Shown here one piece after another: positions 3,401 to 63,772 of a DNA stretch of 64,000 nucleotides; the stretch's first letter is position 1, and every line of letters begins with the position of its first letter. Location: assembly GCA_050486505.1 (NCBI GenBank), contig JBJHDK010000002.1, positions 1,292 through 65,291 on the forward strand, in the 5' to 3' direction. The translations under genes and the position numbers were made by a program. The notes beneath the pieces are model-generated. The model saw only the letters and a list, made by a program, of their open reading frames with translations. It had not been told where the DNA came from and ran no database searches. Origin of the DNA: Fibrobacteria bacterium. Its GTDB lineage: Bacteria; Fibrobacterota; Fibrobacteria; UBA11236.

Positions 3401-4003
3401 CTAGAAGCGCGGGGAGACGATGTCGACGAGCCCGTAAGCCTTCGCTTCCTCGGACGTCATGAACTTGTCGCGGTCGGTGTCTTGCTCGATCTTGTCGACA
3501 TCGTGGCCGGAGTGGTCGGAGAGGATCTTGTTCAACGTCTGACGAATGCGCAGCATTTCCTCCGCCTGGATCTCGATGTCTGACGCGGGGCCGAACATGT
3601 GGCCGGAGATCAGGGGTTGGTGGATCATGACGCGGGCGTTGGGCCAAGCGTAGCGCTTGCCCTTGCGTCCCGCGGCGAGCAGCACCGCTCCCATGCTCGC
3701 AGCCTGGCCGCACACAACGGTCGCCACCGGGGACTTCACCGCCTGCATGACGTCATAGATGGCCAGCCCCGAGGAAATCACGCCACCCGGGCTATTAATG
3801 AAGAATGTGATTTCTTCGTTGCCCTTTGAGTCGAGATAGAGGAACTGCTTCACGAGACGCTCGGCCGCAACGTCGTCCACCGGCGTCCAAAGGAAAATCT
3901 TGCGCTGCTTCAGGAAGGATTCTGCGATTTCCTTGGCCAGGGCAAAGCCCTCGTCCTTATCCTTCTCCTTGTCCTTGTCGTCATTCAACAAAAAATCGCG
4001 CAT
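3401..4003 (-). CDS. clpP: ATP-dependent Clp protease proteolytic subunit
   Basis: ClpP-family motifs IFL..PVDD, GQAASMGA (Ser nucleophile), MIHQP (His). Confidence 0.9.
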   Translation of the reverse strand: MRDFLLNDDKDKEKDKDEGFALAKEIAESFLKQRKIFLWTPVDDVAAERLVKQFLYLDSKGNEEITFFINSPGGVISSGLAIYDVMQAVKSPVATVVCGQAASMGAVLLAAGRKGKRYAWPNARVMIHQPLISGHMFGPASDIEIQAEEMLRIRQTLNKILSDHSGHDVDKIEQDTDRDKFMTSEEAKAYGLVDIVSPRF

Positions 4004-4104
4004 AAAACCGCCTGAGTTTCAGTGTTTTGGGGAGAAGATACATCCGCCCCGTAACCATGGAAATGCGTTTCAGGATGGAACAGGGGGCAATCAATACAAC
4101 ATAC

Positions 4105-4190
4105 AGCAAAACAGCAATACAACAATAGGGAAGCCGGAATTCGATCGCCCGCCCCTTTATTGTTGTACTGCTGTACTGTCCATTGTTTTA
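4105..4190. repeat. Long imperfect inverted repeat (~35-nt arms, ~32-nt loop) in the AT-rich cysS-clpP intergenic region
   Basis: CAATACAACATACAGCAAAACAGCAATACAACAAT ... ATTGTTGTACTGCTGTACTGTCCATTGTTTTACTGTACACTG; arms built from repeated CAATACAACA / TGTACTG units; local GC far below the window average. Confidence 0.5.
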
Positions 4191-4202
4191 CTGTACACTG
4201 CC

Positions 4203-5633
4203 CTACTGCCTCTCCCATTCCATCGTCCCGTCCGGGTTGTCTTTCAGCACGAAGCCAGCGGCGCGGAACCGGTCCCTGATCGCGTCACTGCGCGCCCAGT
4301 CCTTGTTCTTGCGGGCTTCGGCGCGCTCCGCCAGAAGCGGGACGAGTTCGGCGGGCAACTCGACCGCGTCCTCCGTTTCGGCGGGCTCCGTCAGACGAAG
4401 TCCGAGCATGGTGTCGAACAGCGCCACCAGCCCCGCACGCTCGCCCTCGAGCAAGTCGGGATCCTTCAGCATGAGGTTCATGATGCCGAGTGCCTGGGGG
4501 AAGTTCAGATCATCGCCGACCGCCTCCTCGAAACGGGCGCGCCACTCGAGTGCGCGGTCGGAGCGCACGGGGGCCGCCTTGCCGATGAACGGATCGGTAC
4601 GCTTGCGCAGGTTGCGCAGGGAATCGCGCGCGGTGTCCATGCCCTGGTAGCTGAAGTTCAGGTAATTGCGGTAGTGCGCCGTCAAGCAGAAGTAGCGGTA
4701 ATCCATGGCCGAGTAACCCTGCCTGATCAGCACATCGAGCGTGATGAACTCGCCGGAGGACTTGGACATTTTGCCCGCCCCCCCTTTGCACGTCTCGTCA
4801 GGCGCCTCGAGCAACCAGCCGCCGTGGATCCAGAAGCGCGCGAACGGCTTGCCGGTGGCGCACTCCGATTGCGCGATCTCGTTGGTGTGATGCACGCGGA
4901 TGTGGTCGGTGCCCCCGCAGTGGATGTCGATGGTCTCGCCCAGCAGCTTCATCGCCATCGCGGAGCATTCGACGTGCCATCCCGGAAACCCGCGGCCCCA
5001 CGGGGAGTCCCATTCCATCTGTCGTTGCGCGTCTTTGGGCGAAAACTTCCACAGCGCAAAGTCGGTGGGATTACGCTTCCCCTCCGCCATGGCGACGCGC
5101 GCCCCCGCCTGCATTCCCTCGAGGTCGAGCTTCGCGAAGTCGGCATAACGCGGAAACTTCGCTGTGTCGAAATACACGCCATCTTCGGGCACGACATAAG
5201 CGTAACCCTTCTCCTCGAGCTCGCGCACCAGTTCGATCTGCTCGGGAATGTGCCCCGTCGCCTTGGGCCAGGCGGTGGGCTCACGCAGGTTGAGCGCCTT
5301 CCAGTCCTTGAAGAAGGCCTGCGCATACTGTTCCGCGATGTCCCACACCGACTTGCCCTCGCGGCGGGCACCCTTCTCCATCTTGTCTTCGCCGGTGTCG
5401 GCGTCGGAGGTGAGGTGGCCAACGTCGGTGATGTTGACCACATGCTGTACGGTGTATCCGGCGTGCTCGAGGGCGCGGCGCAACAGGTCCTCGAAGACGT
5501 AGGTGCGCAGGTTGCCGATGTGGGCGAAGTGGTACACCGTCGGGCCGCAGCAGTACATCTTCACGATCCCGGGCGTGATGGGTTCGAAGGGCTGCTTGGC
5601 ACGGGCGGCGGTATTGTAAAGATGGAGCTGCAT
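4203..5633 (-). CDS. cysS: Cysteine--tRNA ligase
   Basis: HIGN and KMSKS class-I aaRS motifs; full-length CysRS. Confidence 0.95.
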   Translation of the reverse strand: MQLHLYNTAARAKQPFEPITPGIVKMYCCGPTVYHFAHIGNLRTYVFEDLLRRALEHAGYTVQHVVNITDVGHLTSDADTGEDKMEKGARREGKSVWDIAEQYAQAFFKDWKALNLREPTAWPKATGHIPEQIELVRELEEKGYAYVVPEDGVYFDTAKFPRYADFAKLDLEGMQAGARVAMAEGKRNPTDFALWKFSPKDAQRQMEWDSPWGRGFPGWHVECSAMAMKLLGETIDIHCGGTDHIRVHHTNEIAQSECATGKPFARFWIHGGWLLEAPDETCKGGAGKMSKSSGEFITLDVLIRQGYSAMDYRYFCLTAHYRNYLNFSYQGMDTARDSLRNLRKRTDPFIGKAAPVRSDRALEWRARFEEAVGDDLNFPQALGIMNLMLKDPDLLEGERAGLVALFDTMLGLRLTEPAETEDAVELPAELVPLLAERAEARKNKDWARSDAIRDRFRAAGFVLKDNPDGTMEWERQ

Positions 5634-5773
5634 GGGTCACCAAAGATAGTAGGGGCGACCCGCCGGGTCGCCCTCGGCACAGGGAGCACGCAAGGATCGC
5701 CGCCGCGCGCGCCGCGTACTGTGCGCCCCGACAGGGAGTCGATGTCCCCGCAAAGGCGAGCCACGGCTCGCCC

Positions 5774-15449: not shown

Positions 15450-15488
15450 AAAAAAGAACCCGCCCAGAAGGGCGGGTTCTTTTTTTTG
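15450..15488 (+). terminator. Rho-independent terminator
   Basis: AAAAAAGAACCCGCCC agaa GGGCGGGTTCTTTTTTTT: GC stem plus U-tract. Confidence 0.85.
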
Positions 15489-16657: not shown

Positions 16658-18628
16658 TTACAGGTTGAGGGAAAGACCGAGCGACCAGGTCCGACCGCTT
16701 CGGGGACTGTAGACGAAGTCCCGATACTGTCGGTCGGTGAGATTTCGGACATCGAGGGAGAGTCTGATCGGGCCGCGATGCAAGGCACCGTGGGCACCCC
16801 ACTCCACCTCGGCATCCCGGCGCGATACGGGAAGGTTGGCTTCGCCCGGATACCATGGGCTCCGGAAACCGAGCGTCGGTCCCAGGCGCGCGCCCTCGAA
16901 CGGCTTGGCGAAGAATCCCGCGTGCGCCTCGACGGGACTGTGGTGCGCGGGGCGGTTTCCCGCGTGCAGTCCCTCGGTGATCTCCGCGCGCGACAGGGCG
17001 GCCGATGCCGCGGCTTCGAAACGGCGCGAATCCCATCCCCCTGAAAGTTCAAGACCGCGCACTTGGTAATCCGCACGGTTCTCGTACAGCAGAAAGGGAG
17101 AAGCGCCGCGCGCGCCAAGGCGGATCGGGTCGGTGTGAAGATTCCAGTATGCCTCCCAACGCGCGCTCCATGCCCCATGACCGAGGCCGTGCAGGATCGA
17201 AACCCCCGACGTTTCCTCCGGGCGCAGCGCTGTGTTCGCCTGCACGCCGTGGTTGTCGCCCAGCAATTCGCCGGAAGAAGGCGCGCGCTGCTCATGCTTG
17301 GCCACGGCCGCGAAGATCCCCACGGTCGTTTGCCATTGCAGTGCGGCACGCAATGTGGATGGCATGCGCGCCACCGAGACCCGATCTCCCTCGGGTGCGT
17401 CGGGATAGGCGCGCACCGCATCGGCATCGAAACGCACCGCCGCCGCCCGCGCCTCCAGCGTTGCGTTCAGGAACGGCGTGATGCCGTGATCCATGCGCCA
17501 CCCGAGCAGTGCCTCCAGCCTGCGCCCCGCGGGCGCGGACATGTTTTGCGAAAACGGCGTTTCGCGCGGATCGACGGTTTCGGCACGCAAATGAGCGTCC
17601 GTCGCGAAGGCCAGTGTCCCGGTCAGCGGAAGCCGCGCGCGCGCGTCCACCCCGGCGGATGTCGAGACCCGTTCCAACGCGTGCGAGAGATGGCCCAGCG
17701 TGCGACCGGGATCGCGATACGCGTCGGTGGCGCGATGCGCCTGCACGCCCGCCTCCCAGGACATGATCTCACCGTGATGCCGCGCGCGCCAGGCCCCCAT
17801 CCATGCCTCGCGCACCGTGTAGGCGCTTGATCCGGTGCCGAGCAACCCGGGATATTCCTTGCGCGATTCCAGCCAAAGCAGGGAGACGTCCTGGCCAAAA
17901 AACCCGTTTCCGGCGCGGGCCGAGGCACGGACCCCCCGGCTCCAGTACCCGTTGTTCCGCATGCGCGTGACACCGTCGTCGTCCGGATTGTGGATCGTGC
18001 CGTTGTCGTTGAACCATGGGTAATCGTTGCGGGCATGCTGGCCCTGCACACCGATCGACCATTGCGTCACCCCGTTTCCGCGAACGGTCACGGCGGACTC
18101 CGCGGTTCCATGCGAGCCACCCCGGGCGTGCGCTTCGGTTCGGTCGGCACCGTGGGAGGACAAATCGATGCGGGCCAGCATGCCGGAACCGACGACGTCG
18201 GGATCGACCCCGGTGCGCGCCTCCAGCGACGTGAACCAAAGCAACGGCCACTTGGAAAGATCGGGCGCGGGGTCGCCATCCTGGTTGAGGCGCATTCCGT
18301 CGACGTAGATCTCGATGGATGAGGCGCGCGCGCCGCGAAAACTCAATTCGGAGTAGCCGCCCAGCCCGCCCTGCCGGCGCACGCGAAAACCCGGCAACGA
18401 AGCGATCGCATCCTCAAGGGTCGCGAAACGGCGCAGGGCCTCGCCCTCGATGCGATGCGTGTCGGGTGAGGAGGACTCACTGCTGCGGCCGTACGCCTCC
18501 GTTCCCGGCAACTCGAGCGCTTCGGGCGTGACGCCATCGTCCGCGGCGACGGAAACCGCAAGGACAAACGGCACGGCGCGGGCGAAGGTCCGCGCAAAGA
18601 TCCGCTTTCCCGTAGGGACGTGCGGCAT
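16658..18628 (-). CDS. btuB: TonB-dependent outer-membrane receptor, BtuB-like (cobalamin)
   Basis: Plug and barrel motifs; C-terminal ...SLGLSLNL; start at internal Met MPHV (RBS AAGGAAGG upstream) rather than the track start 18709, which falls inside a palindrome; cobalamin riboswitch upstream. Confidence 0.8.
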   Translation of the reverse strand: MPHVPTGKRIFARTFARAVPFVLAVSVAADDGVTPEALELPGTEAYGRSSESSSPDTHRIEGEALRRFATLEDAIASLPGFRVRRQGGLGGYSELSFRGARASSIEIYVDGMRLNQDGDPAPDLSKWPLLWFTSLEARTGVDPDVVGSGMLARIDLSSHGADRTEAHARGGSHGTAESAVTVRGNGVTQWSIGVQGQHARNDYPWFNDNGTIHNPDDDGVTRMRNNGYWSRGVRASARAGNGFFGQDVSLLWLESRKEYPGLLGTGSSAYTVREAWMGAWRARHHGEIMSWEAGVQAHRATDAYRDPGRTLGHLSHALERVSTSAGVDARARLPLTGTLAFATDAHLRAETVDPRETPFSQNMSAPAGRRLEALLGWRMDHGITPFLNATLEARAAAVRFDADAVRAYPDAPEGDRVSVARMPSTLRAALQWQTTVGIFAAVAKHEQRAPSSGELLGDNHGVQANTALRPEETSGVSILHGLGHGAWSARWEAYWNLHTDPIRLGARGASPFLLYENRADYQVRGLELSGGWDSRRFEAAASAALSRAEITEGLHAGNRPAHHSPVEAHAGFFAKPFEGARLGPTLGFRSPWYPGEANLPVSRRDAEVEWGAHGALHRGPIRLSLDVRNLTDRQYRDFVYSPRSGRTWSLGLSLNL

Positions 18629-18691
18629 GATTCCTTCCTTCCGCGGGGCTGGGCCGCGGAACGATTGTCTGCGTCTGTCGAGGGGGCGGGC

Positions 18692-18719
18692 GTAGGGGCA
18701 AATAATCATTTGCCCCTAC
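18692..18719. repeat. 28-bp palindrome copy 1 (GTAGGGGCAAATAATCATTTGCCCCTAC), extended by flanking GGGCGGGC/GCCCGCCC
   Basis: Read directly; lies in the btuB 5' leader between the riboswitch aptamer and the start codon; near-identical copy at 62963-62990. Confidence 0.8.
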
Positions 18720-18804
18720 ATCGCCCGCCCTCGTCCCGAAGAGCAGCGCGTGAACCCGCAGGTGAGTCTTCTGGCTTGCGGCGGGAACCCCTGTTGGGGG
18801 GATC

Positions 18805-18985
18805 CGGAAGTCTTCCGCCTTCCCGCCCGGCGCCCCGTTCCCCGAAGGGGGGGGATGGCCTGGACAGTGGCTGGCGCGCGCAGTTGCGGGCGCCGGGAAA
18901 ACATCAACCGCTTACAGCGACGAGCTCGCTCCCGATTCGCACGGGATTCCTCGTTATGCCCTTCCGAACCGTTCGGAGGGCTCCC
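18805..18985 (-). ncRNA. Cobalamin (adenosylcobalamin) riboswitch
   Basis: The minus strand reads ...AGGAATCCCGTGCGAATCGGGAGC...GCTGTAAGCGG...GCAACTG...GCCACTG...GGGAAGGC. This matches E. coli btuB leader blocks (AGGGAAUCCAGUGCGAAUCUGGAGCUGAC...GCAGCGGUAAGG) plus the B12 box GCCACTG and GGGAAGGC. Sits upstream of a TonB receptor. Confidence 0.8.
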
Positions 18986-19107
18986 TGTGAGCGAATGGAA
19001 TAGTAGTCAATGCGGATAGCGGGGCGTCAAACGGGCGACCCCACGGGTCGCCCGTACATGAATCGATGCCGAAGGAATGTAGGGCCGAGCCGCTGGCTCG
19101 CCCGAAA

Positions 19108-57435: not shown

Positions 57436-57513
57436 ATGTGCAGGGGCGACGCATGCGTCGCCCTCAACAGAGAGCCAACCACACAGAGTCACCCAAACGA
57501 AAGGATCCATCAC

Positions 57514-61001: not shown

Positions 61002-62060
61002 ATGACTTCCACATCCAATGCGCCCTGGTTCGCCCTGCGCAAGGACGTTCCGGTGCGCGCGCGCGGGCTGATGCTGGTGATGGCCTTCGTGGTGCCGCTG
61101 GGGGTTTGGTCGGCGGTCAGTTATCTCCCGTTTCTCTGGCACCCGCTGGTGTTGATCACCGACCCCGGGGACGCGAGCGTCGAAGGGTTTCACGACTATC
61201 TCGCGCGCGGCATGCTTGTCGAACGCGACGTCTTCAACGAGCGTAACGCGGAGCTTGCCGATGCCGGCGCCGCACTCGCCACGGGCATCCGCAAGAACCC
61301 CATCTACCTGCCCGCCCCGCACCAGGTCGCCGTCGCCTTCTACACAGGCTTCAGAACCCCTCCCGTACGCACGGGGGACCTGTGGTTGCACGAGAGCCTC
61401 GCGCACAGCGTCCGCGTGATCTTCAAGGGATTCTTTCTCGCGGTCCTTCTCGGCCTTCCGCTCGGGGTCCTGTGCGGATCCTTCGCCTTCTGGTCGCGCA
61501 TCTTCGAGCCCTTCGTCGACTTCATCCGCTACATGCCCGCGCCCGTGTTCGGCGCGCTGGCCGTCGCGATCTGGGGACTGCACGACGCACCCAAGGTCGC
61601 GGTCATCTTCATCGGAACGTTCTTTCAGCTCGTGCTGGTGACGGCCAACACGACAAGAAAAGTGGACGGGGCGCTCCTGGAGGCCGCACAAACCTTGGGG
61701 TGCTCGCGCCGCCAAATGCTTTTGCACGTGATCATCCCGTCCGCGATGCCGGGGCTGTACCGCGACCTGCGCATCCTGCTCGGCTGGGCTTGGACCTACC
61801 TCGTGGTGGCGGAACTCATCGGGGTGAAGTCAGGCATCACGGCCTTCCTTTATCAGGCGCAACGCTACAAGCAATTCGACAACGTGTATGCCGCCATGCT
61901 GATGATCGGGTTGATCGGGTTGTTCTCCGACCAGATCCTCGCCTGGATCGAAAAGCGGATCTTTCCCTGGCAGGAAGGTGCGCGTTCCTTCAGCAATCCG
62001 TTCCGTCGGCGCGCGACGCGCGTTGTGCCTGCCGCGTTGAACCCCGGAGGCACGCCGTGA
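61002..62060 (+). CDS. ABC transporter permease (NitT/TauT family)
   Basis: Six TM helices; EAA-like loop (...[21 protein letters not shown]). Confidence 0.8.
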
Positions 62061-62950
62061 ACGGCTTCAACTACAAGACGCAGTCCGAGGCCGTCGCGGA
62101 ACGTTTTCGCAAGCTCAAGGAACGCCCCGTCGTCCTGGAAGTCAACGGCCTGCAAAAGAGTTTCAGCGGAATGCATGTGCTGAAGGAAGTGAACCTCGAG
62201 GTGCGGCGACGGGAGTTCCTCTGCGTGGTCGGCGCATCGGGGTGCGGCAAGTCGACACTCGTGCGTCTTCTCGCCGGGCTTGAGGATCCGGACGGCGGCG
62301 AGGTGCTGCTCGACGGCAAGCCCGCGCGCGGGCCCTGCGCCTCACGGGGAATGGTCTTTCAGGGTTACACGCTGTTTCCATGGTTGAACGTGCGTCGCAA
62401 CATCATGTTCGGCCCGCGCATGCAGGGCAAGGGACGCGAGGCTTCCGCCGAGGAGGCCGACCAGTGGATCCAGCTCGTGGGGCTTTCCGATTTCGCGGAC
62501 GCTTACCCGCACCAGCTTTCGGGAGGCATGAAGCAGCGCGTCGCGATCGCGCGGGCCCTGGCAAACTCACCGCGCATCCTGCTCATGGACGAACCCTTCG
62601 GAGCCCTCGACGCGCAGACGCGCGCACAAATGCAGCGCAACCTGCTCCACATCTGGCGCAACGCCGACGTCACCATCGTCTTCATCACGCACGATCTCGA
62701 CGAGGCCATCTACCTCGCGGACCGCATCCTCGTGCTGCGCCCCAAGCCCGGCCCCGGACGCGAGAGCATCGCGGAACGCATCGAAGTCTCCGTCCCGCGA
62801 CCGCGCACCCCGGAACAGTTCGCCTCACCCGAGTTCGTCGCCACGCGTCGCCGCCTCGAAGAGTGGATCCATCCCGCCGGATCGGAGAACACGAACGAGG
62901 ACAACCTGCCCCGCCTGCGCCTCACCCGCGTGGGCGACGAGGTGGAATGA
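62057..62950 (+). CDS. ABC transporter ATP-binding protein
   Basis: Walker [10 protein letters not shown], signature LSGGMKQR, Walker B LLMDEPF; GTGA overlap with the permease. Confidence 0.85.
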
Positions 62951-62962
62951 CAGGGGACCGAT

Positions 62963-62990
62963 GTAGGGGCAAATGATCATTTGCCCCTAC
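62963..62990. repeat. 28-bp perfect palindrome copy 2 (GTAGGGGCAAATGATCATTTGCCCCTAC)
   Basis: Perfect self-complement; lies between the ABC ATPase stop and the DUF1989 gene; differs by 1 nt from the copy at 18692-18719. Confidence 0.8.
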
Positions 62991-63049
62991 CCTCGTCGCC
63001 CAAAAAAACCGTACGGATGAGGCATGCCTCATCCCAACAGGGAGATGAT

Positions 63050-63772
63050 ATGACACCCACTTTCCACACCGAAACCCTCCCCGGCGGGGCGGCCACCTCG
63101 CTCATCCTGCGGCGCGGCCTCGCACTGCGACTGACGTCGGGAGGCAACAGCGCGAACGTCTCCGCCCTGCTCTTCAACTCCGACCGTCCGCTGGAACGCT
63201 ACAACATGCCCGATACCCTGAAGGGGCAGTACACCGCCTTCCTGACGGCGGGCCGCGCCCTGTACTCCGACATGGGACGGGTGCTGTGCTCGATCACGGA
63301 AGACTCCTGCGGGTGGCACGACACCATCGGAGGGGTGCTTGATGCCCGGCGCGCTGCGGGAAAGTACGGTGTGCTGACCTACCAGCAGGCCCGCAACGAT
63401 TTCCACCGCAACGGGCGCGATAATTTTCTGATCGAACTCGCCAAGCACGGGCTCGGCAAGCGCGACCTGCACGCCAACGTCAATTTCTTCAGCAAGGTCG
63501 CCGTGGATGAGGAAGGCAGCCTGCGCTTCGTCGAGGGACACGCGTCTGCGGAATCCTTCGTGGAGCTGCGCGCGGAGATGAACACCTTGGTCGTTTTATC
63601 GAACACCCCGCATCCGCTCGCGCCCGCAGGCGCGTGGAATCCGCCGCCGGTCGGGCTCTCCGTGCGCGCCGTGCCGCCTCCCGACATGGACGACGCATGC
63701 CGGACATCCCGTCCCGAGAACGGGCGCGCCTTCGTCAACACCGAAACCCTGAACCGGTTGGAGACCGCCTGA
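63050..63772 (+). CDS. Urea-carboxylase-associated family protein (DUF1989)
   Basis: DUF1989-like sequence; placed after a NitT/TauT ABC transporter, as in urea carboxylase clusters. Confidence 0.65.
   Translation: MTPTFHTETLPGGAATSLILRRGLALRLTSGGNSANVSALLFNSDRPLERYNMPDTLKGQYTAFLTAGRALYSDMGRVLCSITEDSCGWHDTIGGVLDARRAAGKYGVLTYQQARNDFHRNGRDNFLIELAKHGLGKRDLHANVNFFSKVAVDEEGSLRFVEGHASAESFVELRAEMNTLVVLSNTPHPLAPAGAWNPPPVGLSVRAVPPPDMDDACRTSRPENGRAFVNTETLNRLETA

Follow-up and report, generated by a model that had tools for sequence, protein, structure and literature searches.

Two copies of a 28-bp palindrome lie in the window, the 64-kb stretch of DNA analysed here. Copy 1 sits in the leader of a btuB-like gene and copy 2 in a spacer of a urea-utilisation operon. 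The features of both sites, read along the forward strand, are:

16658..18628, minus strand: TonB-dependent receptor gene (Plug domain), ATG at 18628, controlled by the riboswitch
18641..18659, minus strand: small hairpin CCGCGG-CCCAGCC-CCGCGG directly 5' of the Shine-Dalgarno, with a stem invariant in six orthologous leaders
18680..18732, minus strand: extended btuB-leader hairpin of 53 nt, outer stem GAGGGCGGGC/GCCCGCCCCCTC, with the palindrome as its apex
18692-18719, no strand assigned: palindrome copy 1, reading GTAGGGGCAAATAATCATTTGCCCCTAC on the plus strand, with a GTAG foot and 12-bp arms
18744..19003, minus strand: cobalamin riboswitch aptamer RF00174 (Rfam, 67.6 bits), upstream of copy 1 on the transcript
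62057..62950, plus strand: ABC-transporter ATPase gene, GTG at 62057 overlapping the permease stop codon, TGA at 62948-62950
62963-62990, no strand assigned: palindrome copy 2, reading GTAGGGGCAAATGATCATTTGCCCCTAC, a perfect 28-mer with centre GATC
63050..63772, plus strand: DUF1989 gene (database name urea carboxylase-associated protein), ATG at 63050, in the same operon downstream of copy 2

An earlier, sequence-only reading of this DNA had reported the palindrome at these two sites, once with a single mismatch and once perfect, and direct readout of the sequence confirmed both coordinates and description. The gene coordinates likewise bore out its placement of copy 2 between the ATPase and DUF1989 genes. 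Its account of copy 1, as part of a flank-extended hairpin between the aptamer and the btuB start codon, also held, with a hairpin length of 53 nt in place of the estimated 45 or so. The consensus of both copies is GTAGGGGCAAAT-NATC-ATTTGCCCCTAC. The centre of copy 1 reads AATC on the plus strand and GATT on the transcribed minus strand, and its symmetry is broken at one position. Copy 2 starts 12 nt past the ATPase stop codon and ends 59 nt before the DUF1989 ATG.

At 28 bp with 12-bp arms, the element falls within the 20-40 bp expected of a short palindromic unit that forms a stable stem-loop. Folded as RNA, the hairpin has a free energy of -18.6 kcal/mol; folded as DNA it gives -11.9 to -12.3 kcal/mol, and the z-scores lie between -5.8 and -7.6. 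The palindrome is a very stable hairpin on either strand. Only these two full copies were recovered when the 64-kb window was scanned for more, and half-sites with up to 2 mismatches occurred elsewhere in it at chance level, none standing out. In 100 dinucleotide-preserving shuffles of the window the palindrome was matched 0 times, even at 3 mismatches. The sequences bordering the copies differ (cgggc and atcgc on either side of copy 1, ccgat and cctcg on either side of copy 2). As these flanks are unrelated, the two copies are not pieces of one larger duplicated segment.

We then scanned species-representative genome contigs (one genome per species) for exact matches to TAGGGGCAAAT-N0-8-ATTTGCCCCTA, which yielded at least 108 loci with at least 119 exact copies. 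Hosts among the matches listed span 29-70% G+C and include cyanobacteria, Bacteroidota, Fibrobacteria, Pasteurellaceae, Moraxellaceae, and Nitrosomonas, as well as several deltaproteobacterial groups or Desulfobacterota-type MAGs, Anaerolineae, Clostridia, Margulisbacteria, and others. Identical 28-mers were present in five Fibrobacteria MAGs (loci L003, L012, L015, L087, and L104). Certain genomes held multiple copies, with at least 8 loci each in delta proteobacterium MFD01299.bin.2.104, Elainellaceae sb_S4C509_1, and Proteobacteria Cu122P5bin52. A scan of viral contigs returned only 3 matches and therefore gave no sign of a phage-borne element.

Among the 119 copies listed, the outer bases were almost always G before TAGGGG and C after CCCCTA, giving GTAG...CTAC, and the flanks of the listed matches were unrelated from locus to locus. 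The 4-nt centres of these 119 copies comprised AATT (39), GGCC (31), GATT or AATC (20), CATG (4), and GATC (3). Among the matches listed, the centres are mostly palindromic themselves, and GGCC was found mostly in cyanobacteria. With a rough gene model, the same 119 copies were assigned to spacers between tandem (54), convergent (19), or divergent genes (11), to the inside of an ORF (17), or to a contig edge (18). Of the listed intragenic copies, 15 of 17 lie in the frame reading VGANxxLPL, and every translated copy of that frame (10 of 10) reads VGAN(D/N/G)(Y/H)LPL. Both window copies are extragenic, in keeping with the mostly extragenic location, the preference for tandem and convergent spacers, and the frequent closeness to a stop codon that characterise a REP. 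Taken together, the positional and taxonomic spread is the distribution of a REP and not that of an operator.

All ORFs within 2.5 kb of a palindrome copy in the 108 loci listed were clustered. The largest cluster (GGDEF/EAL proteins and histidine kinases) was discarded as a generic-domain artefact. One protein family of 170-230 aa was specifically recurrent, being present in 10 of the 108 loci. Its aligned members share the motifs MPNHIHGII (HuH), WQRNYYEHIIRNE, and YIxxNP; expressed as patterns, these are PNH[IV]HGI, WQRNY[YH]EHIIR, and YIxxNP, accompanied by variable inserts, which is the signature of RAYT/TnpAREP subclass 2.4. The family matched NCBIfam NF047646 ('REP-associated tyrosine transposase') with an E-value of ~1e-18, below the curated cut-off, and gave only a sub-threshold Y1_Tnp match in Pfam. 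A profile of the family matched PDB 4ER8, the E. coli TnpAREP structure (E = 1e-5), and its homologues carry the database name 'REP element-mobilizing transposase RayT'. NCBIfam, PDB, and the literature together settled the identity of the protein as a RAYT.

In the 10 loci the RAYT gene has the palindrome as a neighbour on its flanks. In locus L084, for example, palindromes at 3842 and 4507 border the RAYT gene (3919-4464) and another lies within it at 4226; the arrangement is similar in L016, L077, L091, and L105. An in-frame palindrome encoding VGAN[DN]YLPL lies within 4 of the 10 RAYT genes listed. REP-derived peptides such as VGANDYLPL, VGANNHLPL, VGAKNFSPL, and VGANNYSPL are encoded in the insert that follows the HuH motif in a large majority of the 120 best RAYT homologues, often alongside tandem half-arms. 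In other genomes, the palindrome and subclass-2.4 RAYT genes are physically associated. Within the 64-kb window no RAYT gene was found: seven RAYTs used as tblastn queries hit nothing there except the palindromes. The five Fibrobacteria loci with identical 28-mers, each at most 8 kb in length, also contained no RAYT gene.

Several further arrangements were seen at these loci. In Geobacter and Nitrosomonas loci (among L016, L044, L050, L077, L093, and L105), the RAYT gene lies between hsdR and hsdS of a type I restriction-modification operon, and the hsdR ORF carries an in-frame palindrome in L016 and L105 (VGANDYLPL, VGANNHLPL). In delta proteobacterium MFD01299.bin.2.104 (L025, L048, L088) and in cyanobacteria (L019, L041, L053, L064, L079, L106), the palindrome is the core of a longer repeat; examples of such units with flanking inverted repeats are GGTCAAATCCGTTGACAATCTTTCG-[palindrome]-CGGAAGATTGTCAACGGATTTGACC and TTGAAAATGATCCTACCCGATGACG-[palindrome]-CCGACCGTTTAAC.... 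Extra half-arms adjoin full palindromes as tandem ATTTGCCCCTAC or GTAGGGGCAAA(T) (L025 1143-1160, L027, L070, L084 4200-4225, L102, L105), and runs of half-arms occur within RAYT ORFs as VGANVGANAGAN... or ..HLPLHYLPLP (proteins P0054, P0073, P0132, and P0136). These tandem half-arms suggest slippage or repeated partial arm insertion.

We conclude that the palindrome very probably belongs to a kind of element already known, the double-foot GTAG REPs of RAYT/TnpAREP subclass 2.4. Its 28 bp consist of a GTAG foot, an 8-bp stem (GGGCAAAT), a 4-nt centre, and the complementary stem and foot CTAC, and the GTAG...CTAC double foot is present in both window copies. As the GTAG foot is mirrored by CTAC, both DNA strands offer the same GTAG-footed hairpin. 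Quentin, Siguier, Chandler, and Fichant (2018; PMC6006769) describe double-foot REPs as bearing a 5' GT[AG]G and a 3' C[TC]AC. The window palindrome therefore fits this definition at the level of sequence. The same paper characterises TnpAREP subclass 2.4 (group 4 of Bertels et al.) as proteins of ~194 aa that carry NH[IFV]H, WQ, and YIxNNP together with a variable insert and are scattered patchily among phyla; it also reports in-frame REPs inside tnpAREP, between HuH and Y. Our element resembles the double-foot REPs described there in its complementary feet around a long stem, in the RAYT motifs NH[IV]H/WQ/YIxxNP, and in its patchy cross-phylum spread, but differs in that the window holds no RAYT. 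The stem GGGCAAAT and an occurrence in Fibrobacterota are absent from the text of PMC6006769, whose family sequences sit in figures and supplements. The dispersed REP-like element that the sequence-only reading had put forward as one of its alternatives is thereby supported, and can be refined to a double-foot GTAG REP linked with subclass 2.4 RAYT/TnpAREP.

Comparison with other REP systems places the element more precisely. Di Nocera, De Gregorio, and Rocco (2013; PMC3733652) described a broad GTAG-tagged REP superfamily and 'REPtrons'; the text of that paper holds no matching family sequence, its sequences being given in figures. The superfamily shares with our element the GTAG tag, a short G+C-rich stem-loop, the RAYT association ('REPtrons'), a preference for tandem and convergent spacers, and occasional in-frame intragenic copies. 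However, its GTAG is unpaired at one end, whereas here GTAG pairs with CTAC to make a full, unoriented palindrome. The E. coli REP/BIME system with TnpAREP (PDB 4ER8) is alike in having an HUH/Y1 enzyme which reads a GTAG-footed hairpin and intercistronic copies transcribed as stable hairpins. Unlike the window element, the E. coli REPs are confined to their lineage and organised into BIMEs, with bulged stems that bear only one foot. The E. coli enzyme is a subclass 2.2 TnpAREP and lacks an internal REP. In the REPIN-RAYT system of Pseudomonas (Bertels and Rainey 2011), inverted repeats also form one hairpin, the proposed mobilised unit, with the RAYT acting in trans. REPINs, however, comprise two complete REPs and a spacer and are vertically inherited and species-specific, whereas the 12-nt arms of the window element are not hairpins alone and its sequence is identical across phyla. 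The subterminal hairpins of IS200/IS605 elements (IS608, ISDra2) are likewise single-stranded DNA hairpins recognised by a Y1 HUH transposase, but they form the ends of autonomous insertion sequences carrying tnpA, and the palindrome described here is dispersed on its own.

For copy 1, we compared orthologous btuB leaders; a metagenome scan with a 27-nt conserved leader motif recovered only two more. In the window, copy 1 is extended by GAGGGGGCGGGC and GCCCGCCCTC into the 53-nt hairpin (RNA free energy -38.8 kcal/mol), the outer stem of which (GAGGGCGGGC/GCCCGCCCCCTC) is specific to this locus and kept in the orthologous leaders. Besides the aptamer, six orthologous leaders have in common a GCUGC...GCAGC helix, the CCGCGG-loop-CCGCGG hairpin, and a long hairpin whose base is GGGGGCGG/CCGCCCCC. 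The long hairpin occupies the copy-1 position in all six, and this palindrome forms its apex only in the window and in L110 (66% BtuB identity), where it has decayed to GCGGGGGCAAATAATTATTTGCCCTGC. The apex in L114 is a different palindrome (GCAG...CTGC), and those in L111, L117, and L118 are unrelated sequences. As the hairpin base is found in all leaders and the palindrome in two, the long hairpin is older than the element, which rides as a passenger at its tip. Selection for a stable apex could also explain why the palindrome was retained in two lineages that share 66% BtuB identity. Elsewhere in L114, a Fibrobacteria relative, a perfect 28-nt palindrome (GCAGGGGCCAATGATCATTGGCCCCTGC, 2309-2336) follows an htrA-like stop codon; two of its arm positions depart from the window element, and in each case the opposite arm carries the compensating change.

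For copy 2, the synteny of permease, ATPase, and DUF1989 genes is kept in four relatives with DUF1989 identities of 73-77%. The ATPase-DUF1989 spacer in L122 is an empty site of only 12 nt (CAGGGATACGAT). At the same offset, L119 has GCAGGGGCACTTCATGAATTGCCCCTAC, followed by CCTCGTCGCCC as in the window; GCAGGGGCACTTCATGAATTGCCCCTAC is a decayed orthologous copy. The L120 spacer carries a different double-foot palindrome (GTAAGGGCGAGCCATGGCTCGCCCATAC), again at the same offset, and L121 has other hairpins. At both sites, then, the same position holds different 28-nt double-foot palindromes by lineage (window, L119, and L120 for copy 2; window, L110, and L114 for copy 1). The orthologous sites show insertion and turnover of the element.

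The surroundings of copy 2 contain two further sequence features. A second palindrome of 20 nt (GGATGAGGCATGCCTCATCC, 63015-63034) lies 25 nt past copy 2 and just upstream of the DUF1989 Shine-Dalgarno. The equivalent place in L121 (about 1555-1575) holds GGACGAGGCATGCCTCGTCC, with a compensated T-A to C-G change, which suggests a conserved structure or a putative binding site. In addition, the motif CAGGG(G)A..GAT borders the copy-2 insert to the left as CAGGGGACCGAT (62951-62962) and to the right as CAGGGAGATGAT (63035-63049), and the empty site of L122 (1489-1500) has a single CAGGGATACGAT where the window has the motif twice. This looks like a ~12-nt duplication around the inserted copy-2 block, which is not expected for Y1/HUH-type transposition.

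These data bear on the other roles that the palindrome might play. The sequence-only reading had offered co-option of copy 1 as the riboswitch terminator or sequester hairpin, and it could be argued that copy 1 is a functional part of the B12 expression platform, terminating or masking the ribosome-binding site, with its resemblance to copy 2 being secondary. Its location between aptamer and start codon, the stability of the hairpin with its outer stem (-38.8 kcal/mol), the occurrence of a hairpin here in each of the six orthologous leaders, and the persistence of a decayed palindrome in L110 all agree with such a role. However, an element of the expression platform would be conserved in orthologous leaders and would either occlude the ribosome-binding site or terminate transcription, and the palindrome is present in only two of the leaders. 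Four of the six orthologues carry another apex on the same hairpin base. On the minus strand copy 1 is followed by GACAGACGCAG, which has no U-tract, and the terminator scan made no call there; nor does copy 1 pair with the Shine-Dalgarno in the predicted folds. Copy 2 is followed by CCTCGTCGCCCAAAAAAA, again with no U-tract and no call from the terminator scan, such that neither copy combines a G+C-rich hairpin with a U-tract as an intrinsic terminator does. The invariant CCGCGG-loop-CCGCGG hairpin at the Shine-Dalgarno is more likely than copy 1 to be the regulatory hairpin of the platform. With the same 28-mer present in at least 119 copies in unrelated contexts elsewhere, we regard a riboswitch function of copy 1 as unlikely, and the proposed co-option as weak. 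In neither operon does the palindrome serve as an indispensable regulatory part.

From two copies in 64 kb, both in transporter operons, the sequence-only reading had also considered the operator of a dimeric transcription factor with a TGATCA centre. Perfect dyad symmetry, a palindromic centre, and the setting of both window copies in transport-related operons speak for an operator, through which the two transporter operons would be co-regulated. Such a site would be promoter-proximal and linked to a coherent set of regulated genes. Instead, copy 2 lies between two genes of one operon, copy 1 lies in a transcribed leader downstream of the aptamer, and no promoter-like site was found near either. 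Neighbouring genes are unrelated over the 108 loci listed, with 19 copies between convergent genes and 17 inside ORFs, many of them in frame. An identical 26-28-mer in many phyla and at 29-70% G+C misfits the regulon of a host, and the only specifically associated gene is the RAYT. An operator is therefore very improbable, and the transporter-operon setting of both window copies is a coincidence. That the two copies arose by chance or by one local duplication, with no wider family, is a reading prompted by the sight of only two copies in the window, and is next to impossible. The sequence-only reading had already discounted chance, rightly in view of the shuffles without a match and the at least 119 exact copies elsewhere, Fibrobacteria relatives included; a single larger duplicated segment, which it had named as grounds for giving up its proposal, is contradicted by the unrelated flanks. 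It is also extremely improbable that the palindrome represents the two terminal inverted repeats, joined end to end, of a MITE or of a classical DDE insertion sequence such as IS2. The right terminal inverted repeat of IS2 presumably contains the 11-mer TAGGGGCAAAT/ATTTGCCCCTA. The 11-mer TAGGGGCAAAT is present in two IS2 papers (PMC3299598, PMC3219604), and in L025, L048, and L088 the palindrome is nested in longer inverted repeats. Yet the IS2 right-end match extends over only 11 nt and was judged coincidental, no sequence outside the 28-mer is conserved across the loci listed, and no DDE transposase is enriched nearby, the associated enzyme being an HUH/Y1 RAYT.

As double-foot REPs, the window copies would be non-autonomous elements whose hairpins are recognised in single-stranded DNA by an HUH/Y1 RAYT/TnpAREP acting in trans, an enzyme that probably cuts and re-joins them. 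For E. coli it is established that TnpAREP binds single-stranded REP hairpins, recognising their GTAG foot, and carries out both cleavage and rejoining (Messing 2012; Ton-Hoang 2012). The papers cited here describe no experimental mobilisation of any double-foot REP by its RAYT. We infer that a RAYT supplied in trans placed both copies in an ancestor of the window lineage, and that the symmetric foot would make either strand usable as its substrate. Judging by the names of close homologues, the source is probably a Fibrobacterota MAG of high G+C. Copy 1 would have landed at the tip of a long hairpin already present in the leader of the B12 riboswitch, and copy 2 in a formerly very short ATPase-DUF1989 spacer. 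Both are probably transcribed within mRNAs as stable hairpins, at -18.6 kcal/mol for the palindrome by itself and -38.8 kcal/mol once the outer stem of copy 1 is included, and may shield upstream mRNA as 3'-exonuclease barriers. E. coli REPs within about 15 nt of stop codons reportedly disturb translation termination, an observation attributed to Liang et al. in 2015. The copy 2 hairpin, at 12 nt from the stop codon, may do likewise. Copy 2 in its post-stop position and copy 1 in its riboswitch leader thus offer natural test cases for translation termination and leader folding, respectively.

The element is here a further member of its kind in a phylum, Fibrobacterota, which the text of the cited papers does not name. 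Most unusual are its sequence identity across phyla and the apparent swap of double-foot REPs at fixed orthologous positions. We offer as a speculative and unlikely model that double-foot REPs do not insert at random but are swapped like cassettes at fixed 'landing' sites, for instance the apices of hairpins and short spacers behind stop codons, and that the identity of the 28-mer across phyla is kept by the in-ORF seed copy in each subclass-2.4 RAYT gene. If this were true, a REP and a RAYT with its seed copy would constitute a self-contained, horizontally transferable unit, and B12 control could be tuned by the REP at the tip of the riboswitch-platform hairpin. The orthologous sites provide clean empty, occupied, decayed, and replaced examples with which target choice can be studied. 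The 28-mer is also a convenient marker of a subclass-2.4 RAYT system that has kept its sequence unchanged while crossing the boundaries of many phyla. For annotation, a false lead is removed: the palindrome is neither operator nor riboswitch terminator, and should be masked or labelled as a REP.

Other hairpins were also present in the window. REP-like examples include GTAG+GGGCGACCCGCCGGGTCGCCC at 5649-5673, GTAGGGCCGAGCCGCTGGCTCGCCC at 19079-19103, directly after an htrA-like stop codon, GTAC+GGGCGACCCGTGGGGTCGCCCGT on the minus strand at 19058..19031, and GGGCGACGCATGCGTCGCCC at 57444-57463. Several families of GTAG-type REPs seem to be present in the genome, each at low density. A 36-nt hairpin at 15450-15485 (AAAAAAGAACCCGCCC-AGAA-GGGCGGGTTCTTTTTT) is set between an A-run and a T-run. 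It resembles an intrinsic terminator acting in both directions, placed between the tRNA region and the gene that follows btuB.
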